Source: an uncultured Bacteriovoracaceae bacterium
GTDB lineage: Bacteria; Desulfobacterota; Desulfomonilia; UBA1062
Direction: 5' to 3'
Length of the DNA: 62,706 nucleotides
NCBI GenBank assembly: GCA_964572405.1
Contig: CAZNGL010000003.1
Span: forward strand, 1-62,706
Every line of letters starts with the position of its first letter. Position 1 is the first letter of the stretch. Shown here one piece after another: positions 5,742-22,614 of this stretch. The position numbers were made by a program, and so were the translations under genes. Under the pieces are notes generated by a model, which did no database searches, was not told the DNA's origin, and worked only from the letters and a program-made list of their open reading frames with translations.

Positions 5742-7046
5742 ATGACCGGGCCCATCCAGACAACGAGAAAGAGCACCGGAAGCCACGCCAAGAAGCTGCT
5801 GCTGGAGAACGACAGGAGGTACCGGTTCCTGGCGAACCGGATCACGGACATCATCTGGGTGCTCGACCTCAAGACCTTCCGCCTCGAATACGTGAGCCCG
5901 TCCTCGGAACTCGTCACGGGATACACGCCGGAGGAGGCTGTTGGCACCAGGCTGGACCGCTTCGTGACGCAGGAGGGGATGGCCGAGATCCAGCAGGTCT
6001 TCCTGCAGGAATACGAGAAGGAGAAGCGGAAGGTTTCCGACTCCAGGACCATCGATTTCCAGATGTACCACAAGGACGGGCACACGATCTGGCTGGAGGC
6101 CTCGGCCCGATTCTACCGCAACGAGAGGGAGAAGGCCATCGGCATCGTGGGCGTGGCGAGGGACTGTACCCTGCGCAAGGAGGCGGAGATACGGCTCCGT
6201 AAGAGCGAGGAGAAGTATCGGCATATCATCGAAACGATCAGGGAGGCCTACGGCGAGTTTGATCTCGCGGGCAACCTCCTCTCCTGCAACGATGCCACTG
6301 CAGACATCACCGGGTACTCCCGGCCCGAGCTCATCGGGATGAACTACCGGCAGTTTCTTGATGAATCCGATGCCAGGGCCGTGTTCGATGTCTTCCATCG
6401 GGTGTACCTGACCCGCCAGTCCGCGAAGGGGATCGAGTGCGCCATCAGGGACAGGCGGGGGGCTCTCAGGCAGCTCGAGCTCTCCGTCCTCCTGTTGACC
6501 GATGCGGCCGGCAGGCCCACGGGGTTCTGCGGATTCGGCAGGGACATCACCGAGGCAAAGGAGATGCACGAGCGGCTCGATGCCCTCCTGAAGGAACGGA
6601 CCGCGGAGCTGATGCAGACCAACGCGACCCTTGAGAGAACGAACATCGCCCTGCAGGTGCTCCTCGAGAAGAAGGACGAGACGAGGTTCAAGCTGGAGGA
6701 CGCCGTGCGCAGGAACGTGGGCGAGCTGGTGATGCCCGCCCTGAGCAAGCTGCAGAACAGCGGGCTCTCCCCGAAGCAGATGGCCTACGTGGAGGTGATC
6801 ACCAAGAACCTGAACGATATCGTCCAGCCCCTGCTGAAGAGCGTCTCCCGCGACCTGGTGGAAATGACCCCCAGCGAGATACAGGTGGTCAATCTCATCA
6901 AGCAGGGGAAGAAGACCAAGGAGATCGCAGAGTTCATGAATATCGCCCCCAGCACCGTGGACTTCCACCGGGACAACATCCGCTCCAAGCTGAAGATCAA
7001 GAACCGGCGGGTCAACCTGCAGACCTACCTGCGGTCGCTGGAATAG
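5742..7046 (+). CDS. PAS-PAS-LuxR(HTH) one-component transcriptional regulator
   Basis: Two PAS S-box repeats ([12 protein letters not shown]...WLE; [12 protein letters not shown]...RDIT) and a C-terminal LuxR HTH ([22 protein letters not shown]...[13 protein letters not shown]). AAGGAG precedes ATG 5742; alternative starts 5643/5703. Confidence 0.85.
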
Positions 7047-7065: not shown

Positions 7066-7872
7066 TCAACCGCCTATCCCGTTCGAGCGCTGCCGTGCGT
7101 ACACCGCAGCCCCCAGGGCCCCTATGATCTGCGGGTCCACCGGGAGCTCGGCCACCTCCATGGCGAGCATCTTCGAGAGTGCTTTGATGAGGCCCCTGTT
7201 CTTGGCGCACCCGCCCGTGACCGTCACCCTGGGGCGCATGCCGATGCGCTTGAGCAGGGTGAAGCACCGCTTGGACACGGCGGCCTGGATGCCGGCCGCG
7301 ATCTCCTCGGGCGGGTTCCTTTTCGCCAGGAGGCTTATGACCTCGCTCTCGGCGAACACGCTGCACTGGGAGGTTACGGGGATCACCCTGCCCGCCTTCA
7401 GGGAGAGCGCGGAGAACGCCTCGATGTCCATGCGGAAAACCCTGCTCATGGCCTCGTAGAACCGTCCCGTGCCTGCGGCGCACTTGTCGTTCATGGCGAA
7501 CTCTAAAACCGCTCCCCTGTCGTCGATGGCGATGGCCTTCACGTCCTGTCCACCGATGTCCACGATGGTCTTTATGTCAGGACTGCAGGAGAACGTCCCC
7601 ATGGCATGGCAGCTGATCTCGGAGATGTTCTCGCTGGCAAAGGGCACCTCGTTCCTGCCGTACCCGGTACCGATGAGATAGGCCAGGTTCTTGTGGCCGC
7701 CGAGCCCCGGGACCTTCGCGCAGGCCTGCTCGAGGGCGAGCCTGGATGTCAGCTCCGGGTCGATCTCGCTCGGGATGATCACGGACGCCTGCATGGCGCC
7801 CCCCTCGTCGATGATGACCGCCTTGCCCGTGGTGGACCCTACGTCGCACCCGCCGAAGTATCTTTGTGCCAT
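7066..7872 (-). CDS. ATP-dependent acyl-CoA dehydratase/reductase activase (HgdC/BcrAD family)
   Basis: ASKHA motifs GCDVGSTTGK, GTGYGR, DIGGQD and the Fe-S cysteines NDKCAAGTG and SQCSVFAESE. Confidence 0.92.
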   Translation of the reverse strand: MAQRYFGGCDVGSTTGKAVIIDEGGAMQASVIIPSEIDPELTSRLALEQACAKVPGLGGHKNLAYLIGTGYGRNEVPFASENISEISCHAMGTFSCSPDIKTIVDIGGQDVKAIAIDDRGAVLEFAMNDKCAAGTGRFYEAMSRVFRMDIEAFSALSLKAGRVIPVTSQCSVFAESEVISLLAKRNPPEEIAAGIQAAVSKRCFTLLKRIGMRPRVTVTGGCAKNRGLIKALSKMLAMEVAELPVDPQIIGALGAAVYARQRSNGIGG

Positions 7873-9443
7873 ATCCTCGCCTCCCCGTCTTCTCTGTGGG
7901 TTCCCCGCGCCTGGTGATCGAGTCGTTCCGCCTTCATGACATTCTCCATGAAGTGTTCCACCTGCCGCATCATGTTGTCACGGGAGACGATGCGCGGATC
8001 GCTCAGGTCGTAATCCAGGATCAGGAGCGGTATGCCTTTCTCGCGGCACTTCTCGCGCAGGATGCCGTTCATGGCCTGGCCGCTCTTGCATCCCACGTGA
8101 TTGGCCACCCAGACCATGTCCAGGTCGAACTGCTTCACCATGCGGAAGATGTCGTCGAGGTAGTTCTCCGCCGGCCCCCGGGTGTGGCGGACCATGGGGC
8201 CCTGCATGACGACCCTGCTCCAGCCGCGCAGCATGGATTCGGGCGTGGAGGTGTCGATGGGGCCGAGGTGGTTGTAGCTCATGCTGTCGTTCAGGAGGGT
8301 CAGGCCGTAGGTGCGCTCCGCCCAGTTGAAGATGTCCGGGAAGTGGAGAAAGGGCGGATTCCAGCACACCGCCCGATACCGCTCGTTGAGTGTGGCCGGT
8401 AAGTGTTCCTCGAGGTTCTGCCGGGCCAGCTGCACCAGGCGCTCGAAATGTCTCGCCGAATCCTCGCACTCCGGGGTCACGTTGAAGTGCCAGAGATGGC
8501 TCATCCAGACCGCCTCCGAGGCAAGGGGCGCAGGCCTCACCCGGAGCATGTCCCACAGCTCCCGCTCCAGTTCCAGCATGCGATTGCGGTTCTCGCACAT
8601 CCGCCTGAAGAGGTCCCAGTCCATGCGGCCGGTCGTGTGCTTCTCGAGGAACGCGATCATTCCCTTCACGTCTTCGACGAAGAGGTCCACCGCGCGATCG
8701 TTGTAGAAGCGGTACGGCACGTCGAGGCGGTAGACGGGCACGCCGTAGGCGCGCTGGAAGAAGGTGTACGACGCCGCGCCGGCGTCGCAGGGGAGGTTTG
8801 AGCTCACCATGGCGATGCCCTTCGGCAGGTGCCCCTTGAGGACCATGCCCATGGTCGTCTTTGGCAGGCTGCAGGAGTCGGGATTGATCCCCTCGTTCTC
8901 CGCTTCGTCGATGTACTTCAGGCATACCTCCGGGTCCAGCAGGGGCAGCATGATGCCCATGGCCTCGAGCTGGTAGCACCTCAGGCCCATGGCGTGGGCG
9001 ATGTCCGGAGGCACCAGGTCCTCGTTGATGACCAGTCGGTCGGGGTGGAACAGCATCTCCCTGAGCAGTTCCACGACCCCGGCGGTGATGGTGTGCATGG
9101 TCATGCACACCGCCTCGTGATAGCGGCCGGTCCTCCCGGGGAGGATACGCCTCGTGAGGGCGTTCACCTTCTGCAGGGTCAGGATCCACGGGTGCCTGAG
9201 CAAGGTCCGGACGGACCCCACCGGGCCGAAGGCGAGGACGAACTCCATGAGGAACTTCACGATGACCGCATAGTTGAGGGCCCAGTACCTCATGTAGACG
9301 GCCAGGTCTTTCGGATTCCGCGTGCGGACGAGGTATTCCGCAAGGGAATTGTACCAGAGTTTCCTGCCTGTCTCCTTCAGACCGGCGGAAAGGTGTTTCA
9401 TGTCTGCCGTGATGTTCTTCACGCCTCGGGGTCCTCTCTCCAT
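7839..9443 (-). CDS. 2-hydroxyacyl-CoA dehydratase / benzoyl-CoA reductase subunit (HgdA/BcrB type) with N-terminal extension
   Basis: Cys motifs PDSCSLPK, PCDAG and HVGCKS; C-terminal LILDYDLSDPR. Start uncertain (9443 or 9401). Confidence 0.85.
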   Translation of the reverse strand: MERGPRGVKNITADMKHLSAGLKETGRKLWYNSLAEYLVRTRNPKDLAVYMRYWALNYAVIVKFLMEFVLAFGPVGSVRTLLRHPWILTLQKVNALTRRILPGRTGRYHEAVCMTMHTITAGVVELLREMLFHPDRLVINEDLVPPDIAHAMGLRCYQLEAMGIMLPLLDPEVCLKYIDEAENEGINPDSCSLPKTTMGMVLKGHLPKGIAMVSSNLPCDAGAASYTFFQRAYGVPVYRLDVPYRFYNDRAVDLFVEDVKGMIAFLEKHTTGRMDWDLFRRMCENRNRMLELERELWDMLRVRPAPLASEAVWMSHLWHFNVTPECEDSARHFERLVQLARQNLEEHLPATLNERYRAVCWNPPFLHFPDIFNWAERTYGLTLLNDSMSYNHLGPIDTSTPESMLRGWSRVVMQGPMVRHTRGPAENYLDDIFRMVKQFDLDMVWVANHVGCKSGQAMNGILREKCREKGIPLLILDYDLSDPRIVSRDNMMRQVEHFMENVMKAERLDHQARGTHREDGEARIWHKDTSAGAT

Positions 9444-9447
9444 GGTG

Positions 9448-10581
9448 TTATCTGCCCAGACTCTCGATGAACGCCTGCACCCGCGTGCGCAGCTGGCCTT
9501 CTCCGCCCGCGGCATATTCCCGCTCCATCTTCAAAACCGGGATACCCTCCTTCCTGAGTGCGCCGACCAGCGGCATGGTATCCACTCCCCAGAGGTCGCA
9601 GAACTTGATGACCTCGATGACCACCCCGTCCACGCGGAAATCCCTGACCGTGTCGATGATGGTTTGCAGCCGCCGGTCGAAATCCTCCATCATGCGGGGG
9701 CACAGGGTCTTCCTGAAGGTATGTTCCGCAAGGCACCTGATGGGATCGCCCTCGGTCTCCACCGGCGTGAGTCCGGGGATGGACCCGGTGCAGAACCGGT
9801 CGGCCACCACGAGCCCGCCCTGCGATTCGATGATGCCGATGAGTGCGGGGTCGTGGAGGTGCGCCCCCACCAGCATCAGGCGCGCGCGGCAGGGGAAGGT
9901 CCCCTCCCGGTTTTGAATCTCTGCGTAGAGCGACTCGATGGCCGGGAGGACAAGATCCTTGGGCGATACGAGGCCCGCCATGACGATCCGGTGGAAGTCG
10001 GCGCCGGTGATGGGGGGGTGCTCATTCTTTCTCAGGTCGCCGATGAGGAGCACGGCACGGCAGAACCTGTTCCACTCCTCGATGGCCCGTGCCACCGAGG
10101 CGGCGCCCGTGTCGATCCCGAAATGGTCCGAGAGCCTTGTTGCGAGCATGCCGAGTTCAGCGGCCAGCCACTGCGTGGTGAAAGGGGTCTCCTTGCGGGG
10201 TACGTCGATGACATGGCTGAATACGGGCTTCCTGAGGTATTCCAGGTTGTCGATGAAGCGCTGCATGTGCGCGCACGACGGGACGTGGACCCACCCCTGG
10301 ATCAGGTCGTACCGGTTGTCAAAGGCGAATTCGAGGAGACTGCGCGTGTAGGAGCAGGTCAGCGTGGACATGTAGATGTCTGCGATCTCGGTGCCCGCCA
10401 CGCCCGGCGCCCTCATGCGCACCGGGAAGAGCCTGTCCGCCATGAGCAGGGGCTCGGGCACGAAGGAGCAGGAATACCCGATGGCCATGCGGCCTTCCTG
10501 CGATGCCTGTTCCACGAGGCGGTTCAGGGGGTATTCCAGGAGCTCCTCGAAGAAGCGCACGGTCTCGGCCGGCATGGTCAT
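9448..10581 (-). CDS. 2-hydroxyacyl-CoA dehydratase / benzoyl-CoA reductase subunit (HgdB/BcrC type)
   Basis: GYSCSFVPE, TCSYTRS, SCAHMQR, DRFCTG, KFCDLWG and QLRTRVQAFIE motifs. Confidence 0.88.
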   Translation of the reverse strand: MTMPAETVRFFEELLEYPLNRLVEQASQEGRMAIGYSCSFVPEPLLMADRLFPVRMRAPGVAGTEIADIYMSTLTCSYTRSLLEFAFDNRYDLIQGWVHVPSCAHMQRFIDNLEYLRKPVFSHVIDVPRKETPFTTQWLAAELGMLATRLSDHFGIDTGAASVARAIEEWNRFCRAVLLIGDLRKNEHPPITGADFHRIVMAGLVSPKDLVLPAIESLYAEIQNREGTFPCRARLMLVGAHLHDPALIGIIESQGGLVVADRFCTGSIPGLTPVETEGDPIRCLAEHTFRKTLCPRMMEDFDRRLQTIIDTVRDFRVDGVVIEVIKFCDLWGVDTMPLVGALRKEGIPVLKMEREYAAGGEGQLRTRVQAFIESLGR

Positions 10582-10638
10582 TCCGTGATCCCTCCGGTGC
10601 ATGCCCATCGAGTGGAGCAGGACAGCAGCGCATTCATC

Positions 10639-11421
10639 TCACGCGTCCCCCCGGGGCGACAGCCCCATGGTCTCGAGGATGCCCGCAACGACGCTCAGGC
10701 TGGGCGAGGTGTCCGGTATGCCCGCCAGGGACTCCCCCCTGAAATCGAAGTCCCGGATGAGGTCGTCCTCCAGGACCCAGCCGTAGATGGGCAGGCCGGT
10801 CCGTGTCCTGATTTCGTCCACCTCCGAAGGCTTTCTCACCCGGTTGAGCACCAGGCCCATGCTCCTGAAGTCAACCGCCCCGTTGTCCCTCGCCACGTGG
10901 GCTATGGCGTCTGCCACGCCGATGCCCTTGACCGAGGTGTCCGAGATGATCACCAGGTGGTCCACGGTCTTCATGACCCTCCGGTTTATCTGCTCCACAC
11001 CCGCCTCTCCGTCGATGACCACCACGTCGAACGATCCGGCCAGGTCCGCGAGGATGTCCTTGAGCAGCGCGTTCACCCTGCAGAAGCAGCCCTCGTCCTC
11101 GGGCCTCCCGATGGCGAGCATGGCAAACCCGTCCTGCTCGTGCAGGGCGTCGAACATCTCGTAGTCGAGCTGCCTGACGGTCTGTTGTGCGGCCTGCTGC
11201 TCGCCCTTCCTGACCCGGGATATGAGATCCCTTCTGATGTCGTCCACCGTCTTGTGGACCGTCACCCCCAGGGCCACGGCCAGGCCGCAGGCCGGGTCCG
11301 CGTCGATGGCCAGGACCTTCCTGTGTTTCCCCCTGCCCAGGATCTTCACCATCATGGCGGCCACGGAGGTCTTTCCCACGCCCCCCTTGCCGCACAGCGC
11401 TATCCTTTTCGTATCATGCAT
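10639..11421 (-). CDS. cooC: CooC/AcsF-like nickel-insertion P-loop ATPase
   Basis: Deviant Walker A GKGGVGKT, DADP, metal-binding GCFC motif and IDGEAGVEQINR, all characteristic of the CooC family. Confidence 0.8.
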   Translation of the reverse strand: MHDTKRIALCGKGGVGKTSVAAMMVKILGRGKHRKVLAIDADPACGLAVALGVTVHKTVDDIRRDLISRVRKGEQQAAQQTVRQLDYEMFDALHEQDGFAMLAIGRPEDEGCFCRVNALLKDILADLAGSFDVVVIDGEAGVEQINRRVMKTVDHLVIISDTSVKGIGVADAIAHVARDNGAVDFRSMGLVLNRVRKPSEVDEIRTRTGLPIYGWVLEDDLIRDFDFRGESLAGIPDTSPSLSVVAGILETMGLSPRGDA

Positions 11422-12151
11422 GCATGGCCTCCCTGTTCTTGTGCTGCATCGATCGTCTCATCGCCTTGAGCTGGTCCGCGTCCGAACATACATCCTGGTA
11501 TTCGCAGGACTCACAGTCGGCATCGATCTCCACTGCCATCTTGTCCATGGCAGCGACGATCCTGGCGGCAGGCCCGACGATGTCCCGCAGGGCCCTCACG
11601 TCCGCGGGGGAGGAGGTGACCACGACCACCTCGATGGACCGGACGTAATCCCTGTCGCCAAACAGGTGCATGACCGACGAGGCAAGATCGCGCGCCGAGA
11701 ACCCGGACCGTATGGCCTCGGCGCTGACCCTGCACCACTCCTTCTGGTACTGGGGCACCGCCCTGATCATGAACCCCTTCAGGTCGAGGTCGTAGCGGAG
11801 CAGGTCCATGTCCCGGTGCCGCTCGTAGGTGTTCTCCTCCGTGAAGCCTTCCACCCCGGCGAGGACCACCTTGCCGAAGGGCAGGGCCCGCTTGCGGGTC
11901 TCGGTGAAATCGGGACCTATAAGGGTGATGCGTCCGTCCGCGACCTGGCGCGGGTCGCCCGTCCACAGGAGACTGCTCACGGATTCCACGTCCGGGCTCC
12001 CCAGCTCAATGCCCAGGTCCTCCTTCATGACGATGCCCCTTCGGCCCCCGGCCGGCCAGGAGGGAAGGGGGGGCCCGGACCAGCAGCGTTTTTCCGGCAT
12101 CGCTTCGACGAAGTCCCGTACCCGGCGGATGATGTCGGTGAAGAGCTCCAT
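11414..12151 (-). CDS. Stand-alone acetyl-CoA synthase (AcsB/CdhC) middle-domain-like protein with C-terminal CxxC-x5-C
   Basis: ELGSP...DGRITLIGPD...LPFGKVV...ER...W-x-RVS-x-EA-x3-GF...VVVT pattern matches my recollection of the ACS beta-subunit central domain. Only 245 aa; ends CESCEYQDVC. Confidence 0.6.
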   Translation of the reverse strand: MELFTDIIRRVRDFVEAMPEKRCWSGPPLPSWPAGGRRGIVMKEDLGIELGSPDVESVSSLLWTGDPRQVADGRITLIGPDFTETRKRALPFGKVVLAGVEGFTEENTYERHRDMDLLRYDLDLKGFMIRAVPQYQKEWCRVSAEAIRSGFSARDLASSVMHLFGDRDYVRSIEVVVVTSSPADVRALRDIVGPAARIVAAMDKMAVEIDADCESCEYQDVCSDADQLKAMRRSMQHKNREAMHA

Positions 12152-12154
12152 GGC

Positions 12155-12940
12155 CTATGCCCTGCCCCCCGCCATTTCGCGCGCCATGACCGCGGCCCCC
12201 AGGGCCCCGATGATCTGCGGGTCCACGCCCACCTTCAGCAGCTTCACCCCCAGGGCCTCCTCGAGGGCCGTGAACATGCCCGGGTTCTTCGCCACCCCGC
12301 CGGTCATGGTGATCTCGCCCTCGAGCTCGATGCCCCGGGCCAGCGAGGCGACCCGGTGGGCCATGGCCCGGTGGAGCCCTGCAACGATGTCCGCGAGGTC
12401 TTTCCCGTCGTTGATGAGCGAGATGATCTCGGTCTCGGCAAAGACCACGCACTGGTTGGAGATGGTGACCGGCGAGCGCGCGGCCGCCGAGAGGTTTCCC
12501 ATGTCGTCCAGGGGGATACCCATGGCGCCCGCCATGATCTCCAGAAACCTCCCGGTCCCTGATGCGCACTTGTCGTTGTAGGCGTAGCGGACGACGCCGC
12601 CCTGATCGTCGAGCCTGATGGCCTTGGCATCCTGGCCGCCTATGTCGATGACCATGCGCACCTTCGGAAGGAGCCACCGCGCCCCCCTGCCATGGCAGGC
12701 GATCTCCGACTCCACGGCCGTGGCAAAGGGTATGGAGTTCCGCCCATACCCCGTGCCCATGCAGCATGCGATGTCGTCCATGGCGAGGCCGGCCAAGGAG
12801 AGCGCGCCCTCCATGACTTCCCGGGCCGAGTCTTCCGGCTCGGGCCGGGCACGGATGACATGCGAGGCGATGATGTTGCCGTTGTCCATGATGACCGCCT
12901 TGGCGCTGAGCGAGCCTATATCGCATCCCGCTGCTATCAT
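12155..12940 (-). CDS. ATP-dependent activase (HgdC/BcrAD family), second of a tandem pair
   Basis: ATG 12940 (MIAAGCDIGSLSAK) overlaps the upstream stop (ATGA); NDKCASGTG and SNQCVVFAETE motifs. Confidence 0.9.
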   Translation of the reverse strand: MIAAGCDIGSLSAKAVIMDNGNIIASHVIRARPEPEDSAREVMEGALSLAGLAMDDIACCMGTGYGRNSIPFATAVESEIACHGRGARWLLPKVRMVIDIGGQDAKAIRLDDQGGVVRYAYNDKCASGTGRFLEIMAGAMGIPLDDMGNLSAAARSPVTISNQCVVFAETEIISLINDGKDLADIVAGLHRAMAHRVASLARGIELEGEITMTGGVAKNPGMFTALEEALGVKLLKVGVDPQIIGALGAAVMAREMAGGRA

Positions 12941-13725
12941 TTCGACGCTCCTTCCATCTTCTCCCTGGCACAGACGGCGGCCCCCAGGGCCCCGATGATC
13001 TGCGGGTCCACGCGGAGCCTGCGGATGCCGGTGCCCAGGAGCTTTTCCAGTGCGGCCACCACGCCCGTGTTCTTTGCCACGCCGCCGGTCATGCACACGT
13101 CCCGCTCGATGCCCACGCTCCGGGCGAGGATCGCCACCCTTCCCGCCATGGCGCGGTTGACTGCCGAGGCGATGTCCGCCCTGGACCTCTTCGCGTTCAG
13201 GTGGTGGATCACCTCGGCCTGGGCCCACACCGTGCAGGTGGAGGCCAGCTGGAGGGGTTCCCCTGCCTGGGATGAGAGCTTCCCGAGCTCGTCGAGGCTC
13301 ACGCCAAGGATCTTGGCCATGACCTCCAGGAACCTTCCCGTTCCGGCCGCGCACTTGTCGTTGGTGAAGAACTTCACCACGTTCCCCCCGGCGTCCAGTT
13401 TGATGGCCTTGCAGTCCTGGCCGCCGATGTCGATGACGGTCCTCACCGAGGGCATGAGCCAGTGCGCACCCTTGGCGTGGCATGCGATCTCGGAGACGGC
13501 CTTGCCCACGAAGGGTATGCGCTCCCTCCCGTAGCCGGTGCCCACGCAGAACGCGACGTCCTTCATGGCCAGCCCCGACGTGGCCAGAGCCCTGTCCATG
13601 ACCTCCCGGGCGGAGTCCTCGGGTCTGAAGGTGGAGCTGATGACCGCGTGGCCGAGGATACTCTTCTGGTTGAGTATCACCGCCTTGGTGGTGAGCGAGC
13701 CGACGTCGCATCCGGCAACGATCAT
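12937..13725 (-). CDS. ATP-dependent activase (HgdC/BcrAD family), first of a tandem pair
   Basis: GCDVGSLTTK, GTGYGR, NDKCAAGTG and STCTVWAQAE motifs; AAAGGAGGA RBS. Confidence 0.92.
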   Translation of the reverse strand: MIVAGCDVGSLTTKAVILNQKSILGHAVISSTFRPEDSAREVMDRALATSGLAMKDVAFCVGTGYGRERIPFVGKAVSEIACHAKGAHWLMPSVRTVIDIGGQDCKAIKLDAGGNVVKFFTNDKCAAGTGRFLEVMAKILGVSLDELGKLSSQAGEPLQLASTCTVWAQAEVIHHLNAKRSRADIASAVNRAMAGRVAILARSVGIERDVCMTGGVAKNTGVVAALEKLLGTGIRRLRVDPQIIGALGAAVCAREKMEGASK

Positions 13726-13779
13726 GGGTTGGTCCTCCTTTTCATCGTATATTCACGCACAGCCGCTCCATGAGATCCT

Positions 13780-14016
13780 CTACAGGGTCATGCTGATGGT
13801 CGCCCCGGCCCTGATCCGCTGGGCATAGAGCCTGCAGCGTTCCTTGAGCACGTTCATGTCGGTCGTGCGCTCGATGTGAGCCAGGGCCGGGAGGGCGGCC
13901 TCCCTGAAGAGGGTGAGGGCGTCGATGGCTCGCTGGCGTTCCACCAGCATCCGCCGGGCGTCCAGCGCGATGTCGCGGATGACCTCGATGGCGATGGCAT
14001 CATTCCTCGCGTCCAT
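13780..14016 (-). CDS. Small hypothetical protein (78 aa)
   Basis: GGAGGTG RBS before ATG; fills the gap between the dehydratase subunit and activase genes on the same strand. Confidence 0.7.
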   Translation of the reverse strand: MDARNDAIAIEVIRDIALDARRMLVERQRAIDALTLFREAALPALAHIERTTDMNVLKERCRLYAQRIRAGATISMTL

Positions 14017-14055
14017 GGATCACCTCCGGGTGAACGGTTATCGGTACGGATGCAT

Positions 14056-15459: not shown

Positions 15460-16589
15460 GCGATCCTCTCCATGAACGCATCGATGCGCATCTTGATCCT
15501 TCCCGTCTCCACCAGGGGTCCGTATTCGCGTTCCATGCGCATGCAGGGGACGCCCGAGGCCTCCAGGTCCCGCTCGAAGATGCCGTTCTCGGAGCCGTGC
15601 AGGTCACAGAACCGGATGTTCTGGAGGATGACGCCGTCCACGCGGGCCTCACGCGCCAGCTCCCGGATGTAGGCGAGTCTTTCCCGGTAGCAGCCGAACA
15701 TGCGGGGACAGAACTTGTGGCTCAGGTAACGCTTCGCCAGGGCCTCGAAGGGATCCGCCTCTTCGTCCACCAGGTCGCGGTAGGACCTGGAACCGAAGCA
15801 CATGGTATCGCTCACCACCACGCCTCCGGAGGACTCGATGAGCCTGATGAAATCCAGGTCGTCGCTGGTGCTGCCCACCACCATGAGGCGTTTTCTGCCG
15901 CCAGTCACGGCAGGAGCCTTCTTCAGACCCTTCAGGATCTCCTTCAGCTCCCTGGTATAGTCTTCCCGGGGCATGGCAAACCCGGCCAGCACGATCGCCG
16001 CCGCATCCTCCCCGGTCAGGGGTGAGCCAGGGGAAGCCCTCAGTGCATCGAGCTCCATGAGGAGCCTACGGCCCTGGTTGTAGAGCCTGATGGATTTTTT
16101 CAGCGACGCGGTGGACACGCTTACCCCGAAGTGTTCTTGGAGGCGGTTCGAGAAGATCCGCAGCTCGTCCGTATACCACGTGATGCTGTAGTCCTCCACC
16201 TTGTGGGGGACGCCCAGGTAGTGGAAGAACCCCGGCACCCTGCCCGGGATGTCCTGGCCTGCCTTTCTCCAGCACTCGTCGAGCCTCCGCATGGAATCGC
16301 ATCCGTTCACGATGACGGCACCGTCGAGGAAGGCGTAGTCGCCCTGGCCGGCCAGCTGGAGTATGCACTTGGGGAAGCTGCAGATCACCGGACCGAAGTA
16401 GGTGTCGCCGATGGACAACGTGGTGGTGTTGATGCCCCTGAGCCGGAAGGGCAGCATGCCCGCGGCATGGATGATCTCGTCGGGCACGAAGGTGCATGGG
16501 TAACCGATGACCTTTCCCCCCGCATCCTTCCACTGCCGCAGGTAGGTGTTGCCGATGGATCGCGCGATGTCCCTCATGGCATCCATCAT
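15456..16589 (-). CDS. 2-hydroxyacyl-CoA dehydratase / benzoyl-CoA reductase subunit (HgdB/BcrC type)
   Basis: GYPCTFVPDEI, ICSFPK, NGCDSMRR, DTMCFG, RFCDLHG and MRIDAFME motifs. Confidence 0.88.
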   Translation of the reverse strand: MMDAMRDIARSIGNTYLRQWKDAGGKVIGYPCTFVPDEIIHAAGMLPFRLRGINTTTLSIGDTYFGPVICSFPKCILQLAGQGDYAFLDGAVIVNGCDSMRRLDECWRKAGQDIPGRVPGFFHYLGVPHKVEDYSITWYTDELRIFSNRLQEHFGVSVSTASLKKSIRLYNQGRRLLMELDALRASPGSPLTGEDAAAIVLAGFAMPREDYTRELKEILKGLKKAPAVTGGRKRLMVVGSTSDDLDFIRLIESSGGVVVSDTMCFGSRSYRDLVDEEADPFEALAKRYLSHKFCPRMFGCYRERLAYIRELAREARVDGVILQNIRFCDLHGSENGIFERDLEASGVPCMRMEREYGPLVETGRIKMRIDAFMERIA

Positions 16590-17794
16590 GATTCACCCCC
16601 TGCACACAGCGGTGCGCCGTTCCGTGACGGCACGGCCGCGTCCAGGATCGGCCGCAGCGCCTCGATGACCTCGGGCACGATCCAGGCGGCCGCCGCCCTG
16701 ATCTCCTCGGTGTCCAGGGAATCGGCCACGCTGGTGATGAAGGAGGAAAAGACCTCGGGCCTGACCTCGTGGATGCCGTTGAGCACCCGCGCAAGGGTGT
16801 TGAGGGAATTCGCCATCTCGTAGGTGTCGAGGTCGGAGAGGCCCTGCGCAACCGACCCGGCCAGGGTCTCCCGGTCGAATTCCTCGAACATGCGGGTCCT
16901 CCGCGAGAAGGCCCTGATGGCAGGCGACTTCAGGGAACCGAGGGCACGCACCATTTCGAGCACGAGGTCTGGATGTTCCCTCAGCGCATCCGCCAGGGCA
17001 CAGGCAGCGGCCTCCCTGTCTTCCGCCAGTGCGACGCGGGCCTTCTTCAGGAGGACGGGGTCGACGAGCGGCAGGCCCTCCTCGAGCAGCGCGGTGAGGT
17101 AGACCTGGAAAAGGGGCCTGCCTGCCCTGGCAAGGAGGAGGTTGCCCGTATGGACGCGCCGGATGAGCTCGCTCACCGAGTTCGCCAGACGGGCGATCTC
17201 CCCGGCATCGAGCCTCCGCACCAGCGAGAGCAGGAGGTCCGCCAGGAGGTCGGGCCCCACCTTCTTCTCGATGGGCTGCAGGAGGGTTCTCACTGAGCTG
17301 ATCCCGGTGTTGACCAGGGCGAGCAGGGTGCCCAGGATACTCCCTGCCTTGGCGGGGTAGCTCCAGAGGTGCTCGTTGAAGGCCTCCAGCGCCTCGATGA
17401 CGCGAGCCCTCGATTTCTCCGCCATCTCCCGGATCTCACCGAAGTCGGTGCTCCTGAGGAAGCCGTGTATGGCCTCCCCGTGCATGGCCGCTCCGCCGGC
17501 AGGGGCCGCTGCCTGTTCGGCATTCACCGTGCGGGCCCACGCGGTGACCAGCGTCCCCACATCGGCCGCCATGCCCCCGTCGTGCCTGGCCGGAGGGGTA
17601 TTGCCCAGTCTGGACGCGACCCACAGGGCGGGGGCTGCGAGCCTTTTCCTGAAGCCCTTCCCATCCGCCCAGCCGCAGATGAGGTCTTTTGCCACCTCCG
17701 AGACCAGGGCCCTGGCTCCCGCAGACCGCATGGTCCTGCCGATGATGCGGGCCAGGGCCCGGGTGCCGGCCGTCTGGTGATCCGTGCTATTCAT
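16586..17794 (-). CDS. Hypothetical all-alpha protein (402 aa), paralogous to 18482..19132 and 19129..19560
   Basis: Translationally coupled on both sides; repeated P-x2-L/F...[VL]D-x2-E[LI] helical motif. Confidence 0.75.
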   Translation of the reverse strand: MNSTDHQTAGTRALARIIGRTMRSAGARALVSEVAKDLICGWADGKGFRKRLAAPALWVASRLGNTPPARHDGGMAADVGTLVTAWARTVNAEQAAAPAGGAAMHGEAIHGFLRSTDFGEIREMAEKSRARVIEALEAFNEHLWSYPAKAGSILGTLLALVNTGISSVRTLLQPIEKKVGPDLLADLLLSLVRRLDAGEIARLANSVSELIRRVHTGNLLLARAGRPLFQVYLTALLEEGLPLVDPVLLKKARVALAEDREAAACALADALREHPDLVLEMVRALGSLKSPAIRAFSRRTRMFEEFDRETLAGSVAQGLSDLDTYEMANSLNTLARVLNGIHEVRPEVFSSFITSVADSLDTEEIRAAAAWIVPEVIEALRPILDAAVPSRNGAPLCAGGES

Positions 17795-18485
17795 TGTGCC
17801 CCCCTGTCTTGTCTTTGAGCATCTCTTCCAGGGCCCTTCTCCCGGCCTCTGTCATGTGGGTCTCGAACATGAGGTGGCTCATGGTGGTGAGCGTCGCAAT
17901 GGCCTCCTCGCGGGTGAATTTCTCCTCCATGAGGAAGCTGTGACCGAGGTGCATGGTCATGCCCACCACGGCATAGGCCATGGTGATGGGGTTCACGCCC
18001 TCGATGACCCCCATGTCCAGCCAGCTCTGGATGTCCTCGGCAAGGTCCTGGGCGATGTCGCTGTAGTGCTTCCAGATGGTGACATCCATCTCCTCGTCCA
18101 CGCCGAAGCTGCCGCGGAGCACCATGAGGAACTGCTGGCGGTGGGAGGTGATGTAGTCGAAGTAGGCGCCGTAGCTCTGATTGAGCTTGTCCACCCTGTC
18201 TCCGTGGTCCCAGATGTTCACCGGCTCCCTGAGTTTCCTGATGCGCAACCGCAGCTCCTCCAGGTTCCGGTTGGTGATCTGCCCGAAGAGATCCCGCTTG
18301 TCCTTGAAGTAATTGTAGAAGGTTCCCGCCGACATGCCCACGGCCTTGACGATGTCCATGACCTGGGTGTTGTGGTAGCCGTGCCTGCTGAAGAGCTCTT
18401 CGGCGGCCTCCATGATCATGTCCCGGATGAGCTGCTTCTTCTTTTCCAGGAGTTTGTTCACGGGTGTTGCCCTCATGCCCTTCAT
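17787..18485 (-). CDS. TetR/AcrR family transcriptional regulator
   Basis: HTH AAEELFSRHGYHNTQVMDIVKAVGMSAGTFYNYFKDKRDL; ATG 18485 overlaps the upstream TGA. Confidence 0.92.
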   Translation of the reverse strand: MKGMRATPVNKLLEKKKQLIRDMIMEAAEELFSRHGYHNTQVMDIVKAVGMSAGTFYNYFKDKRDLFGQITNRNLEELRLRIRKLREPVNIWDHGDRVDKLNQSYGAYFDYITSHRQQFLMVLRGSFGVDEEMDVTIWKHYSDIAQDLAEDIQSWLDMGVIEGVNPITMAYAVVGMTMHLGHSFLMEEKFTREEAIATLTTMSHLMFETHMTEAGRRALEEMLKDKTGGHNE

Positions 18486-19132
18486 ATGCCGAGCCTCTTT
18501 CTCACCCTGCCCCGCACCAGGTTCCAGGTCCAGGACGCCAGGCGCCACTTCTGGTCGAGGAGGGCATTGGCCATGGTGGTGGCGGCCTTTGCCAGTTCTT
18601 CCCCGTCGACGTTTTCCATGACTGTGGCGATGAACCTGCTGAAGGCCTGCGGGTCGTCCCGGGTGATGCTGTTCACGAACCGCGAGAATGCATTGATGGC
18701 GCCCGCTTTGATCTTGGGTCCTTCGGAGAGAAAGGCCCGGATAAGGGTTGTTCCCAATTCAGGCGAGGCCTTGATCATCGCGGACGCGAGACCTGCCCAT
18801 TCCTTGCCGCACTCCCTCAAGGCCTCCCTGTCGATGTCCTCCGCGAGGCTGACCATGAACGACTTCAGGAGCTCGGGTGGGTACTTGTCCTTCAGTTGGG
18901 TCGCCAGCTCGGTGAGCGCGCCTGTCACGCTGTTGATGAACACGGGAAGGCCCCCGGAAACCCCGAAGAAGACCTCCGGGTCGTCCCCGAGGAGTGTCTT
19001 TACCGCCTCCCTGCCCGAGCCGGGATGCAGGGAGTTCATCTTCACCCGGATGAGGTCCTTTGCAAGGGTGGAGCGCATGAGGGCCTTCAGGATACCCCCC
19101 TGGTTCTGTGTGGATGGCCCGGCCTGTCTCAT
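18482..19132 (-). CDS. Hypothetical all-alpha protein (216 aa)
   Basis: ATGA overlaps on both sides; clear similarity to 19129..19560 (DPEV...YPP-x-LL...EDID/EDVD). Confidence 0.75.
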   Translation of the reverse strand: MRQAGPSTQNQGGILKALMRSTLAKDLIRVKMNSLHPGSGREAVKTLLGDDPEVFFGVSGGLPVFINSVTGALTELATQLKDKYPPELLKSFMVSLAEDIDREALRECGKEWAGLASAMIKASPELGTTLIRAFLSEGPKIKAGAINAFSRFVNSITRDDPQAFSRFIATVMENVDGEELAKAATTMANALLDQKWRLASWTWNLVRGRVRKRLGI

Positions 19133-19560
19133 GTGCCCTCCTTTCCCCTCAGGGCCTGTTCCTCCACGGCCTTCGCAAAGGCGCCGAAGACGGGCGCCAG
19201 GTCACTGCCGAGGTCCCTGAGATCGTGGATCAGGCATGCGAGGGTCTGGCGGTCCACGTCTTCCAGGAGGGATTCCACCATGCCCGCGAGCAGGGGCGGC
19301 GGGTACGTGCGCCGGACCTGCACCACGAGCTCCGCTGCGATCTTGATGAAGCAGTTGGCGATCACGGGGAGAGCGCCCGTCACGGCCAGGGGCACCTCGG
19401 GGTCCTTCCCCAGGATGGTCCGGACGAGCCCGGGACCGGCCTCAGGATCGATGTTCCTGAGAAACAGGCGCAGGCTGTCCTTGAAGGATGCGCTGGCCAG
19501 GAGCTCTTCGGCCACCCTCGTCCTGCCTTCGATCAGTCCCGTGTTCGCGGCTTCGTCCAT
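19129..19560 (-). CDS. Hypothetical all-alpha protein (143 aa)
   Basis: GAGGTG RBS; paralog of the next gene. Confidence 0.75.
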   Translation of the reverse strand: MDEAANTGLIEGRTRVAEELLASASFKDSLRLFLRNIDPEAGPGLVRTILGKDPEVPLAVTGALPVIANCFIKIAAELVVQVRRTYPPPLLAGMVESLLEDVDRQTLACLIHDLRDLGSDLAPVFGAFAKAVEEQALRGKEGT

Positions 19561-19569
19561 GGCATCACC

Positions 19570-20844
19570 TCACAGCGTCTCGCAGTTGAAGAAGTACCGG
19601 GCGGCCTCCATCTGGCAGAGCTGCTTGCCGCCCATCCAGAGCTGCACGATCTTGATGTCGCGCCAGTGCTTCTCGATGTCCCAGTCCCGGTCTGCGCCGA
19701 ACAGGCCGAGCACGTCCATGGCCTTGCCGAAGTTCTCCACGGCGCGATCGGAGATGAAGTCCTTGATGTTGCGGATCCTCCCCACCACGTCCTCGGAAAT
19801 CAGGGGCTTGCCGTGGGGCTTGTTCCTCCGGTCCCCGATCATGGCCGCCTCGTGTCCCAGGATGCGGCAGATGTCGATATCGCCCGCGATGCGGCCGATG
19901 ATGCCTGCCACGGCATCGTTCTCCTTGAGAGGGGTATTGTTGTAGGTGCGGGTGGACACGAACTCGTAGAGCCGCTCGTAGAGGTTCAGCATGGCGCCGG
20001 TGAGGAAGGCGCAGCTCATGACCTGGCCGAAGGAGATGAGCTGGTAGAAGGCCTCGGCGTCCCTGCCGGGACCGTGGGCCCGGTACCAGGAGGGTACGCG
20101 GACGTCCTCGAACCAGATGTCGCCGTTCTTGTCCGCCGCCATGCCGGCCTTCTCATAGGCGCCGCCCTGGGTCACGCCGGGCAGGTCCGCAGGGACGAAG
20201 ATGAAGGCGAAGTCCCTGGGGTCGCTGGACCCGGGCTTCGTGGTGCAGGGCACGCCGAAGAGGCTGGCCACGCCGCCCGAGTTGGTGGGCCAGAGCTTGT
20301 GACCGTTGATGACCCACTCGTCGCCGTCGAGACGGGCCGTGGTGCGGATGGTCCTGCCGCGGAGCAGCCCGAGGTTCTCGATGTCGGCCCCCCCCTGGGG
20401 CTCGGTCATGGCGTTGGCCGCGAACACGGCCTTGTCCGCCTTGCAGAACAGGGGCGCGAACTCGGCGATGAGGCGCTCGTTCTTGTAGGGCTCCACCATG
20501 ACGACGAGGAGCGGCCAGAAGGTCACGGCCAGGGCAACGGCCATGCCCGTGTCGGCCCTGCCGAGCTCCTCGCAGAGCATGTACCCGCCGCGGAAGGCGT
20601 AGTCGGAATCGGCCAGGCCCCAGCCCCCGTATTTGAGGGGGAAGAGCGATTTCTGGAGTCCGAGCTCTGCCATGAGCCTGTCGAAGGCCGGTTCGATGAG
20701 GTTGTGGTCCTTCCAGTCCTCGTCGTATCTCCGGCGCTGAGGCATGACCCACTCCTCCAGGTGCTTCCTGAGGAGGCGCCTGAAGTGCCGGTCAAAGGGG
20801 GATATGTATTCTTCCGGACGGGAGAATTCGTCGAAATGCATCAT
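19570..20844 (-). CDS. Acyl-CoA dehydrogenase-fold flavoprotein (atypical active site)
   Basis: NAMTEPQGGAD, NGHKLWPTN, FEDVRVP and EKHWRDIK motifs; the canonical C-terminal YEG is replaced by WMG. Confidence 0.88.
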   Translation of the reverse strand: MMHFDEFSRPEEYISPFDRHFRRLLRKHLEEWVMPQRRRYDEDWKDHNLIEPAFDRLMAELGLQKSLFPLKYGGWGLADSDYAFRGGYMLCEELGRADTGMAVALAVTFWPLLVVMVEPYKNERLIAEFAPLFCKADKAVFAANAMTEPQGGADIENLGLLRGRTIRTTARLDGDEWVINGHKLWPTNSGGVASLFGVPCTTKPGSSDPRDFAFIFVPADLPGVTQGGAYEKAGMAADKNGDIWFEDVRVPSWYRAHGPGRDAEAFYQLISFGQVMSCAFLTGAMLNLYERLYEFVSTRTYNNTPLKENDAVAGIIGRIAGDIDICRILGHEAAMIGDRRNKPHGKPLISEDVVGRIRNIKDFISDRAVENFGKAMDVLGLFGADRDWDIEKHWRDIKIVQLWMGGKQLCQMEAARYFFNCETL

Positions 20845-20859
20845 GGCTTCATCACCTCC

Positions 20860-22098
20860 TCAGATCTCGGAACAGTCGTAGAAGAAGCGGGCCGTGTCCA
20901 TCTTCACCGGCGCTTCAGCGCCCACCCCGCACAGCAGGGAACCGATGGTCTTCACATCCCTCCAGTGTTTCTCCACGTGCCACTCCTTGGCGTAGCCCGC
21001 GGACCCCATGAGCTCCATGCCCCGGTCCATGGCCCTGAGCGCCCCCCGGACGGCCCGCAGGCCGATCATCCCGGCATAGGCGAAGGTGCGGCCCATGTCC
21101 GAGCGCCACGATCCGGCCTGCGCCGCCATGATGCCCGCCAGATCGTAGAGGAGGAGCTTGGCCACGGCGATCTCCTCGGCGACGTCGGCAAGGACCGACG
21201 CGCACAGGGGGTTCTCCTTCAGGGTGGTGCCTCCCTTGATGACCCGGTGGTCGCTCCAGTCGGCGAGGAGTTCGAAGAAATTCGTCGCGGCCCCGACGCC
21301 CACGCCGGCCAGGAGCAGGTTGAGCCAGGCGTAGAGACCCGCTATGGTCTCTTCCCCTTCCAGGACGCCATCGCCGGGCACCGGCGCGTCGTAGAGGTCT
21401 ATCTGGGCGTTGCCGCAGGCATTGAGTCCGGTCATGAGGATGGGAGAGCCCCGCTTCACTCCCTGTGCGTCTCCCGGGACAATGGCGAGGCACGGCGTAG
21501 AGTCTCCCTTGGCGCACACCACGCAGAAGAGGTCGGCCATGCCGCCTGCGACGAGGGGCCGGAGGCCTTTGCCGTTCAGCGTGAAGCCGTCTTCTGATTG
21601 TCTTGCACTGACCAGGATGGACCTTCCGAAGAACAAAGGTGTCTGCATGCCGGTGAAGCCCGGGCCGGTCAGGATGAGGGCCGGGGTCCTCACTGTCTCG
21701 TCCGCAGAGATGCCTGCCAGGATACTGCACCGCCCCTCCCCGTTGTCGTGCGCCCCGGCGGCAAGGGACAGCGCCCAGGTTGCTGCGGAAAGGAAGCCCA
21801 TGGAGGCGTCGGCGCGGCCTGTCTCGCAGGCGAGGGTGAGCAGGGCAGGGGCTTTTGCAGGGCTGTTCCAGCCGAACCCGCCGAGGTCTGAAGGGATGGC
21901 GAGCTTCTGCAGGCCGATGTCCATGGAGAGCTTCTTCCTCTTTTCCGCAAAGAGCCGATCATAGCCCTCCCGGTATTCCATGCGTTTTGAGACGATCTCC
22001 TTGTCGGCCCACTGCCTGAGAAGCCGCACGACGCTCAGGGATTCCTCGTCCATGGCGTGCTTCGGGTAGAGAAAAAGTTCGTCGAGATTCCTGCTCAT
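20860..22098 (-). CDS. Divergent acyl-CoA dehydrogenase-fold protein (putative partner subunit)
   Basis: C-terminal GMELMGSAGYAKEWHVEKHWRDVK is conserved, but the N-terminal FAD motif is degenerate (LILTGPG for ALTEPG). GAGGAGG RBS before ATG 22098. Confidence 0.82.
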   Translation of the reverse strand: MSRNLDELFLYPKHAMDEESLSVVRLLRQWADKEIVSKRMEYREGYDRLFAEKRKKLSMDIGLQKLAIPSDLGGFGWNSPAKAPALLTLACETGRADASMGFLSAATWALSLAAGAHDNGEGRCSILAGISADETVRTPALILTGPGFTGMQTPLFFGRSILVSARQSEDGFTLNGKGLRPLVAGGMADLFCVVCAKGDSTPCLAIVPGDAQGVKRGSPILMTGLNACGNAQIDLYDAPVPGDGVLEGEETIAGLYAWLNLLLAGVGVGAATNFFELLADWSDHRVIKGGTTLKENPLCASVLADVAEEIAVAKLLLYDLAGIMAAQAGSWRSDMGRTFAYAGMIGLRAVRGALRAMDRGMELMGSAGYAKEWHVEKHWRDVKTIGSLLCGVGAEAPVKMDTARFFYDCSEI

Positions 22099-22274
22099 AG
22101 GTCCTCCTCGCAAGAGGGATAGGATGGATATGCCGGTGTGTGTTCGTACCTGGAATGAGGGCAGGGAGAAAGGGACAGAAACTCACGGGCATGACGGGTA
22201 TCCCCACACAGGTCCTTCACGGCAAACCCCCTTTCAGGGTAATCAAAACACCAGGCCGACACGAACCCTCTTGA

Positions 22275-22290
22275 TAATGAGGATTCATTA
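22275..22290. promoter_or_regulatory. Palindromic operator TAATGA-GGAT-TCATTA, candidate site for the operon-encoded TetR
   Basis: Perfect 6-bp inverted repeat at or just downstream of the predicted +1. The assignment to TetR is inference. Confidence 0.6.
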
Positions 22291-22296
22291 CCATGA

Positions 22297-22325
22297 ATGA
22301 TAATTACTATTACTCTCCCTGTCAA
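22297..22325 (-). promoter_or_regulatory. Sigma70 promoter of the 16-gene operon: TTGACA-N17-TATCAT
   Basis: Minus strand: -35 TTGACA at 22325-22320, 17-nt spacer, -10 TATCAT at 22302-22297, in an AT-rich island. Confidence 0.8.
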
Positions 22326-22452: not shown

Positions 22453-22614
22453 TCAGGAGCGTGCGTTCTTCACCAGGATATACACGGCGATACCCGCCAC
22501 GAGCGTTCCCATGGAAAGGCTCATCGTGTCCTTTCTCATGGCGCCGTAGGCAATGTCCGCGAGTCCGAGCAGGAAAAACAGGGCAGGCGGCACGGTCGCC
22601 GCAGGGAGTCTCAT
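22453..22614 (-). CDS. Small (53 aa) two-TM membrane protein, not in the supplied ORF track
   Basis: Manual translation MRLPAATVPPALFFLLGLADIAYGAMRKDTMSLSMGTLVAGIAVYILVKNARS*; GGAGG RBS 8 nt upstream. Confidence 0.65.
   Translation of the reverse strand: MRLPAATVPPALFFLLGLADIAYGAMRKDTMSLSMGTLVAGIAVYILVKNARS

Follow-up and report, generated by a model that had tools for sequence, protein, structure and literature searches.

Positions 1 to 62,706 of contig CAZNGL010000003.1 (assembly GCA_964572405.1) of an uncultured Bacteriovoracaceae bacterium, an anaerobic deltaproteobacterium, are here called the window and carry on the minus strand an operon of 16 genes, which is best seen as a previously undescribed form of the ATP-driven radical enzymes related to benzoyl-CoA reductase (BCR), 2-hydroxyacyl-CoA dehydratase (HAD) and double-cubane cluster protein (DCCP), equipped with a new set of accessory proteins. 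We propose, with middling confidence, that the operon encodes an uncharacterised subfamily of these ATP-dependent iron-sulfur (Fe-S) enzymes, and that an acyl-CoA is reduced, or undergoes reductive elimination, by way of a ketyl radical in an ATP-coupled reaction. To our knowledge only three reactions are established in the family, i.e., reduction of arenes, elimination of an alpha-hydroxyl group and reduction of small molecules by DCCP, to which the formation of lipid ethers by PlsA/Ger can be added.

The operon consists of 16 consecutive open reading frames (ORFs) on the minus strand between positions 7066 and 22113 of the window, with high GC content at third codon positions and without opposite-strand genes between them, as judged from the ORF list and Pfam. 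In the direction of transcription the genes are called g1 to g15, with g10 split into g10a and g10b. The Pfam tally is two proteins similar to acyl-CoA dehydrogenases (ACADs), three without a family (143, 216 and 402 amino acids, aa), a TetR repressor, four HGD-D proteins in two beta/alpha pairs, a 78-aa ORF, three BcrAD_BadFG ATPases, a CdhC-like protein and a MinD/CooC-like ATPase. This confirms the number, common orientation and order of genes in the original prediction for this DNA, and Pfam and NCBIfam bear out its assignment of the HGD-D and BcrAD proteins to the ATP-driven radical enzymes. It also described the ACAD-like proteins as atypical, and both indeed lack the catalytic Glu; the helical proteins, which it called unknown, match no known family. 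Tight clustering of subunits with a characterised enzyme of a described operon had been named as an outcome that would refute it, and this is not seen: none of the operon proteins reaches any NCBIfam equivalog cutoff, and no subunit clusters tightly with a characterised enzyme.

The radical-enzyme core comprises two modules. The beta subunit of the first, g7 (15456-16589), has BzdN as its best match in the Protein Data Bank (PDB; 1e-43), followed by HadC and DCCP. In BzdN the ligands of the [8Fe-9S] double-cubane cluster are Cys36/73/100/263/293/327 (PMC11971306). With these align C32/70/97/264/294/328 of g7, invariant in 63 orthologues, and His330 and Arg267 of BzdN are also kept, as H331 and R268. 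The beta subunit of the second module, g13 (9448-10575; Pfam HGD-D 7e-78), is 32% identical to g7 and has the equivalent six Cys of double-cubane type, C47/85/112/273/303/337, again invariant. Both g7 and g13 are therefore predicted carriers of an [8Fe-9S] double cubane. HadC has residues other than Cys at two of the six positions when aligned with g7, and its [4Fe-4S] cluster is reported with three Cys ligands (PMC7317905). The double-cubane model NF040772 is the top NCBIfam match for both beta subunits, with 183 bits for g7 and 143 bits for g13 against a cutoff of 350.

The alpha subunit of the first module, g8 (14056-15459), is the predicted catalytic subunit and has a three-Cys ligand set for a [4Fe-4S] cluster. 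All 96 sequences compared keep C134, C163, C413 and E103. The three Cys align with BzdO Cys95/128/380, and Glu103 takes the position of HadB Glu55, at a distance from the first cluster Cys that equals that of BzdO Glu65. At the position of BzdO His131, g8 has an invariant Asn166. The g8 sequence by itself gives marginal matches to DCCP and HadB and none to BzdO at E 0.01, and the family profile finds HadB nearest (7e-15), then DCCP and then BzdO (2e-6). The alpha subunit of the second module, g14 (7839-9422; Pfam HGD-D 1e-51), has an N-terminal extension and a three-Cys cluster set, with C160, C188 and C421 invariant (numbered from the truncated start that was used) and the Glu kept.

Electrons would be supplied by ATPases of the BcrAD/HgdC type. 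The adjacent genes g10a (12937-13725; Pfam BcrAD_BadFG 7e-61, TIGR00241) and g10b (12155-12934, assigned by family matches) are 56% identical, and their cluster-binding Cys, C125/C164 in g10a and C123/C162 in g10b, are invariant; by analogy with the ATPase modules of BCR, their products are likely heterodimer partners. A 518-aa ORF at 12155-13711, the first half of which is out of frame, was discarded as an artefact in favour of these two genes. The third ATPase of this type, g15 (7066-7872), also assigned by family matches, belongs to the second module, which is an accessory one, and likewise keeps both Cys that bridge the [4Fe-4S] cluster.

How far the core is from the characterised enzymes can be seen from the NCBIfam scores. 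The bzdN model gives 146 against a cutoff of 454, and bzdQ 207 against 380. The best match of g8 to a catalytic BCR subunit is bcrB, with 15 against 487, and it does not match bzdO; g14 scores 37 with the bzdO model, the cutoff of which is 449. Judged from sequence, the core architecture and the beta cofactor are BCR/DCCP-like, and the active site of alpha does not resemble that of BCR, nor clearly that of a dehydratase.

The system is widespread. Eighty-two related loci (L001 and onward) were fetched, and the counts that follow refer to the 28 distinct loci that extend for 8.5 kb or more to either side. Gene order is near-constant across the 82 loci, and more than 70 loci of other genomes share it with the operon, from which it follows that the arrangement is not due to chance. 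A lack of synteny in other genomes was the other outcome that would have refuted the original prediction; with gene order so strongly conserved, the refutation fails. The genes g6, g7, g8 and g10a are each present in 28 of the 28 loci, g10b in 27, g11 in 26 and g12 in 25. All 28 also have a flavoprotein gene, which is the ACAD pair in 21 of them and a GMC-like (glucose-methanol-choline family) protein of about 440 aa in the other 7. Taken singly, g1 is found in 21/28 loci, almost always with g2, and g2 in 22/28; g3 and/or g4 occur in 19 of the 21 loci with the ACAD pair. The second module is represented by g13 and g14 in 17 loci and by g15 in 15. All 16 genes are present in contig L001, which is 98% identical.

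Among the candidates scored, 569 homologues of g8 were found at E <= 0.001. Their hosts are nearly all uncultured Desulfobacterota (Desulfomonilia, Smithella/Syntrophaceae, Desulfatibacillaceae and Desulfobacterales), with a few in metagenome-assembled genomes (MAGs) labelled Bacillota, Leptospirales, Bacteriovoracaceae or Myxococcota, and the MAGs of the g8 family come from digesters, sediment and peat. In many orthologous clusters (L002-L004, L008-L014 and Smithella-type loci) a single beta subunit is accompanied by two alpha paralogues, which share about 75% and 60% identity with g8, and many MAGs have two complete copies of the system; together, these duplications suggest substrate diversification. 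Within the 62-kb window no second copy was found. An exact-sequence look-up of g7 returned no record, and no description of the cluster was found in the literature searched by family, taxon and domain.

The flavoprotein partner is here the product of g1 (20860-22098) and g2 (19570-20844). Pfam finds all three ACAD domains in g2 and only the N- and C-terminal ones in g1; the three-domain fold and the FAD motifs are present in g2 and degenerate in g1. By alignment to PDB structures, g2 keeps the TEP and WxTN FAD motifs. At the position of the catalytic Glu376 of medium-chain acyl-CoA dehydrogenase g2 has Met404, and Met is found there in 36 of 39 orthologues; the alternative site of isovaleryl- and long-chain acyl-CoA dehydrogenases is a gap or Gly, never Glu. 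In g1, Leu stands at the Glu376 position. An ACAD pair that lacks the catalytic Glu, and that is replaced by a GMC-like protein in 7/28 loci, makes ordinary alpha,beta-dehydrogenation of an acyl-CoA by g1 and g2 doubtful. Two adjacent, divergent ACAD genes, one of them with degenerate FAD motifs, suggest instead that the two proteins likely form a heteromer with one flavin per pair. Four Cys are conserved across the pair (C304 and C395 in g1, C200 and C410 in g2), two of them just after the position of the missing Glu, and a metal or an Fe-S cluster might be bound jointly by them. A precedent for such an Fe-S site in the ACAD fold is 4-hydroxybutyryl-CoA dehydratase.

The GMC-like flavoprotein that takes the place of the ACAD pair is encoded at L034:5994-7340 and in 20 other loci, with Bacillota, Leptospirales, Desulfobacterales and Desulfatibacillum as hosts. 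It keeps the catalytic His of GMC enzymes and has, in 17 of 21 orthologues, a ferredoxin-like CX3CX2CX3C insertion. On redox-potential grounds, it is unlikely that the flavoprotein donates electrons to the ATPases.

The accessory pair g11 and g12 is related to proteins of nickel enzymes. The 245-aa product of g11 (11414-12151; Pfam CdhC) is a mini version of acetyl-CoA synthase (ACS): its family profile matches ACS residues 334-482 at 2e-9, and its AlphaFold2 model (pLDDT 87) matches ACS structures only, at E 1e-11. It consists of the ACS middle domain and a long helix, followed by C213-x2-C216-x5-C222, the three Cys of which are the only invariant ones (48/48 sequences). By their spacing they might be equivalents of the cubane Cys of the ACS A-cluster, but the profile alignment ends before the motif. 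The A-cluster/Ni-binding domain of ACS, with four cubane Cys and a Cys-Gly-Cys Ni site, is absent. At 50% identity and E <= 1e-30 the mini-ACS family amounts to 213 clusters or more, and the 150 best matches listed are all shorter than about 310 aa, mostly 230-270 aa. The neighbouring g12 (10639-11421) encodes a MinD-family ATPase with a deviant Walker A motif of MinD type, the best PDB match of which is CooC1 (3kje, 5e-16). Its CxC motif aligns with that of CooC1, and C112 and C114 are invariant in 45/45 sequences. Neither carbon monoxide dehydrogenase (CODH) nor full-length ACS is found in the window or in the related loci. The nickel-handling module of the original prediction reads too much into the pair: g12 is CooC-like with its CxC motif, but g11 has the ACS middle domain only.

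In L083 and L084, the neighbourhoods of which are otherwise unrelated, a divergent mini-ACS gene again comes immediately behind HGD-D and activase genes and is followed by a CooC-like gene. Such recurrence beside other HGD-D enzymes suggests that g11 and g12 are probably accessories of the HGD-D radical enzyme, and their role could be maturation or repair of a metallocentre, delivery of metal, or CoA binding. The cluster at L083:6562-11720 (GCA_003353945.1), in which HGD-D beta, HGD-D alpha, one activase, mini-ACS and CooC-like genes lie behind a MarR gene, is a second uncharacterised system with the same accessory pair; it adjoins genes for an alkylsulfatase, a sulfotransferase, an SBF transporter and two molybdopterin oxidoreductases.

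The remaining new components are helical proteins. The products of g3 (19129-19560, 143 aa, without Pfam or NCBIfam match) and g4 (18482-19132, 216 aa) are 36% identical, and hhalign relates g4 to the family of g6 (16586-17794, 402 aa) with a probability of 96%; by these similarities, the three genes are paralogous. Pfam recognises no domain in their products, nor in the homologues of g6, and conserved Cys and clear membrane segments are absent from the three. The AlphaFold2 model of g6 (pLDDT 77) is an all-alpha bundle or solenoid of 19 helices, for which Foldseek gives no PDB match with E < 0.7 and to which no family can be assigned; g6 makes up a new family. It overlaps g7 by 4 nt and is translationally coupled to this beta subunit. 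Its product tends to be longer in loci of the GMC type, and g3 and g4 occur only alongside the ACAD pair. The three proteins may serve as adaptor or scaffold subunits between the flavoprotein and the radical enzyme. The 78-aa helical product of g9 (13780-14016) has no family match and no Cys, and orthologues that are 52-75% identical are found in about 30 loci.

The mechanism that we favour can be outlined as follows. By analogy with BzdNOPQ, HadBC-HadI and DCCP, the g10a/g10b heterodimer (g15 for the second module) would hold a bridging [4Fe-4S] cluster and, at the expense of ATP, would force an electron of low potential onto g7 or g13, the beta subunits. There, a double cubane of BzdN type would relay the electron, or store up to two. 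In the alpha subunit (g8 or g14) the three-Cys [4Fe-4S] cluster, with one open iron, would act on the substrate together with the conserved Glu. A ketyl radical would form at the thioester carbonyl of an acyl-CoA, probably derived from a lipid or a fatty acid, and would lead to two-electron reduction or to reductive elimination at the alpha and beta carbons. The flavoprotein partner, g1/g2 here and the GMC-like Fe-S flavoprotein elsewhere, may perform or couple a neighbouring two-electron step. Adaptor or scaffold functions would be provided by g3 and g4, beside the flavoprotein genes, and by g6, beside the radical-enzyme genes, and g11 and g12 would be a dedicated pair for maturation, repair or delivery of the metallocentre of the HGD-D enzyme. 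The TetR protein g5 would repress at TAATGA-N4-TCATTA until it binds an acyl-CoA-like effector. What the sequences show directly is the set of genes, their conservation, the ligands of the clusters, the folds and the motifs of promoter and operator; the electron path, the thioester nature of the substrate and the roles of the helical proteins and of g11 and g12 are what we infer from these comparisons.

Several further observations count for this reading. The flanks of other loci contain, scattered, ferredoxins, flavodoxin-ferredoxin fusions, GMC proteins, 4HBT thioesterases, crotonases, a FadL-type porin and amidases, and among these the sporadic thioesterases, crotonases and FadL-type porin count for it. 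Two paralogous copies, which many genomes have, are as expected for catabolic enzymes diversified in substrate. The nearest solved structures of g5 (17787 to about 18485, about 231 aa; Pfam TetR_N and TetR_C_46) include the acyl-CoA-sensing FadR proteins of Sulfolobus, Bacillus and Thermus, relatives that hint at an acyl-CoA effector for g5.

Other observations weigh against the reading that we favour. No gene for a CoA ligase or transferase is conserved nearby, and only the analogy with the family, the fold of g1 and g2 and the relatives of the TetR protein point to CoA dependence. The ACAD-like proteins have no catalytic base, and the partner is of the GMC type in 7/28 loci; enzymes of that type normally oxidise alcohols, not thioesters. 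The conserved core is without a ferredoxin, which would be unusual for a stoichiometric reductase. DCCP shows that members of the family can act on small molecules other than CoA esters. In E. coli the double cubanes of BzdNO and DCCP form with no CooC- or ACS-like helper, which makes a maturation role for g11 and g12 speculative. The dedicated catabolic route of the original prediction is likewise not sustained: no CoA ligase or transferase, electron-transferring flavoprotein (ETF), hydratase or thiolase is encoded in the 62-kb window, the 88 co-directional flanking ORFs of the related loci yield no consistent pathway and none of these functions is conserved among them, and without such linked genes a complete route is not shown. 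The aromatic, alicyclic or steroid substrate that it also suggested finds no specific support.

One alternative, which we consider unlikely and yet deserving of attention, is a redox-neutral 2-hydroxyacyl-CoA dehydratase, possibly one that converts a long-chain 2-hydroxy fatty acyl-CoA to the 2-enoyl-CoA, with a flavoprotein that oxidises, epimerises or reduces a neighbouring intermediate. The catalytic-subunit profile is nearest HadB and the position of HadB Glu55 is kept, GMC enzymes could oxidise the hydroxyl, and an enzyme that uses its electron catalytically needs no ferredoxin. A dehydratase, its activator and an ACAD are also co-located in clostridial had/fld operons, a D-2-hydroxyacid dehydrogenase is encoded just downstream of the cluster in the Desulfomonilia loci L002-L004, and the hosts are mostly oxidisers of fatty acids or alkanes. 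The beta subunits speak against it, since g7 and g13 have all six double-cubane Cys, like the reductases BzdN and DCCP, and HadC lacks two of these six. Furthermore, the first module has a pair of ATPase genes where a single activator gene would be expected, no linked gene encodes a CoA transferase or an ETF, and the HadB and HadC equivalog scores are far under cutoff.

It is quite unlikely that the operon encodes a dearomatising reductase of the class I BCR type, acting on an unusual aromatic or alicyclic acyl-CoA, with the ACADs processing the ring-reduced product. The first module does have the four-subunit architecture of BCR, with two HGD-D proteins and two different ATPases, and its beta subunit is nearest BzdN with the full double-cubane Cys set; the best NCBIfam matches of g2, too, include the models for cyclohexane-1-carbonyl-CoA and cyclohexanecarboxyl-CoA dehydrogenase, although far under cutoff. 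The active site of the alpha subunit tells another story, with the invariant Asn in place of BzdO His131, which lies beside the catalytic Fe-bound water, and with a profile nearer HadB than BzdO or MbdO. Every bzd or bcr equivalog score is far under cutoff, none of the linked genes encodes a dienoyl-CoA hydratase, ring hydrolase, aryl-CoA ligase or ferredoxin, and the ACADs have no catalytic base.

A more daring extension of the acyl-CoA reading, and a distinctly improbable one, is that g11 and g12 install nickel, or build a heterometallic or otherwise non-standard Fe-S centre, in the HGD-D enzyme, and that the whole, its own Fe-S flavoprotein and helical adaptors included, is a self-contained supercomplex with which syntrophs and sulfate reducers transform acyl thioesters of lipid origin at low potential, in a manner so far unfamiliar. 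If true, such a centre would be a new class of metallocofactor among ATP-driven reductases.

There is only a slim chance that the enzyme is an ATP-driven reductase of a non-CoA substrate, be it a small molecule, as for DCCP, or a membrane lipid, as for PlsA/Ger, with the flavoprotein as a module for electron entry or exit: the double-cubane model tops both beta subunits, the flavoprotein swaps between two unrelated folds, of which the GMC-like one has a four-Cys insertion typical of electron-transfer sites, the substrate-deprotonating Glu is lost in the ACAD-like proteins and no CoA-activating enzyme is linked, but the alpha/beta organisation is heterodimeric, like that of CoA-ester enzymes and not like the DCCP homodimer, the beta subunits stay well below the double-cubane cutoff, flavin potentials are too positive for reducing the ATPase cluster, the TetR relatives sense acyl-CoA and the helical proteins lack clear membrane segments.

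The genes of the operon are tightly packed and appear to be transcribed from one promoter. Start codons were set by orthologue alignments and ribosome-binding sites, which places g1 at an ATG at 22098 rather than a TTG at 22113, g13 at an ATG at 10575 and g14 at a GTG at 9422, and leaves a gene span of 7066-22098. The junctions are overlaps, of which that between g14 and g15 is 34 nt, or gaps of at most 63 nt; the predicted gaps under 60 nt are thus found everywhere except between g12 and g13, where the gap is slightly larger. A sigma70-type promoter, TTGACA-17-TATCAT, with 11/12 consensus positions, lies at 22297..22325 on the minus strand (read from 22325 to 22297) and is the sole strong match within 6.8-24.8 kb. 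Its -10 hexamer is overlapped by operator-like, AT-rich inverted repeats on the same strand (22269..22311), ATTCAT-N4-ATGAAT and TAATGA-N4-TCATTA, in agreement with the single promoter/operator that had been predicted. The second palindrome is also found upstream of the g1 orthologues in the distant loci L010, L012-14, L019 and L045, and its recurrence ahead of the first gene in distant clusters fits an operator for the TetR protein of the operon. A riboswitch in the 5' untranslated region of about 190 nt was rejected, as the region has no Rfam match and folds in no unusual way (z-score -0.18).

On both sides the operon has neighbours of its own. Directly upstream, at 22888-24345 on the minus strand, an HpaB-family protein of 485 aa is encoded, with a CCxxxC motif (C100/C101/C105) and His-x5-Cys, which resembles the Fe-S flavoenzyme 4-hydroxybutyryl-CoA dehydratase (AbfD) more than an oxygenase. 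As a member of the system it was rejected, being adjacent only in the 98%-identical relative L001. Between this gene and the promoter there are two small ORFs (22453-22912, minus strand): the first, of 90 aa, belongs to Pfam AF_0334 and overlaps the HpaB stop codon, and the second encodes a hydrophobic peptide of about 53 aa. Divergent from the HpaB-like gene, at 24670-25935 (plus strand), lies a gene for a radical SAM protein of 421 aa; its best NCBIfam match, well under cutoff, is a radical SAM maturase of tungsten-cofactor oxidoreductases. At the other end, a PAS and LuxR (GerE) regulator gene (5643-7046, plus strand) converges on the operon, and 19 nt separate the two stop codons. L001 has this regulator too, and a few other loci (L019, L051, L053 and L078) have PAS-GerE genes akin to it near the cluster. 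The remainder of the window is housekeeping (DnaE, RpsA, IMPDH, PRPP synthase and lipopolysaccharide glycosyltransferases), and among these genes, 30 kb from the operon at 52457-54430 (plus strand), is one for an OYE/FadH-family Fe-S flavoenzyme of 657 aa that resembles BaiCD, 2,4-dienoyl-CoA reductase and bilirubin reductase, all under cutoff.

The operon defines a widespread fourth lineage of the radical-enzyme family, with components that have no precedent in it: an obligatory flavoprotein partner, a new family of helical proteins and a pair made up of an ACS domain and a CooC-like ATPase. Knowledge of its substrate would extend anaerobic carbon cycling by one reaction, and the role of g11 and g12 would bear on the maturation of elaborate Fe-S cofactors, the double cubane among them, or on whether nickel enters this chemistry.

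It remains to compare the operon with known systems, beginning with the accessories. Heteromeric alpha2beta2 acyl-CoA dehydrogenases, such as PimCD and those of the FadE26/27 type, keep the catalytic Glu in the active subunit. They share with g1 and g2 the arrangement of two adjacent, divergent genes, one with degenerate FAD motifs, but neither g1 nor g2 has the Glu. As for ACS (AcsB/CdhC) and the nickel-insertion ATPases CooC/AcsF, g11 resembles the middle domain of ACS both in fold and in sequence, and g12 is nearest CooC1 and has the deviant Walker A and CxC motifs. In contrast to ACS, g11 has neither the N-terminal nor the A-cluster domain, and the pair is linked to HGD-D enzymes with no CODH/ACS nearby.

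Among the relatives of the core, DCCP with its reductase DCCP-R (PDB 6ENO; PMC7317905) has in common with the operon the six-Cys double-cubane motif and ATP-dependent reduction by an ATPase of ASKHA type. DCCP is a homodimer with a seven-Cys motif and small-molecule substrates, whereas the double-cubane subunit of the operon is paired with a separate, three-Cys catalytic subunit. HadBC with HadI (PDB 3O3M), and the had/fld operons, are similar in that HadB is the nearest solved relative of g8, with the equivalent of Glu55 kept, in that an ACAD gene is part of the operon, and in that the second module has a single ATPase of activator type. They differ in that the beta subunits here are of double-cubane and not three-Cys type, that the first module has two ATPase genes, that the window has no CoA transferase, 2-hydroxyacid dehydrogenase or ETF, and that the ACADs lack the catalytic Glu. 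BzdNOPQ (PDB 8S02; PMC11971306), finally, shares with g7, g8, g10a and g10b the adjacent set of two HGD-D proteins and two BcrAD-type ATPases, the six-Cys [8Fe-9S] beta subunit and the three-Cys [4Fe-4S] alpha subunit with an acid/base Glu. Compared with BzdO, the alpha subunit of the operon is very divergent and, with Asn for His131, has an incomplete Glu65/His131 pair. The operon is also without the ferredoxin and ring-degradation genes, and adds to the BzdNOPQ plan the helical proteins, the flavoprotein, the mini-ACS and the CooC-like ATPase.

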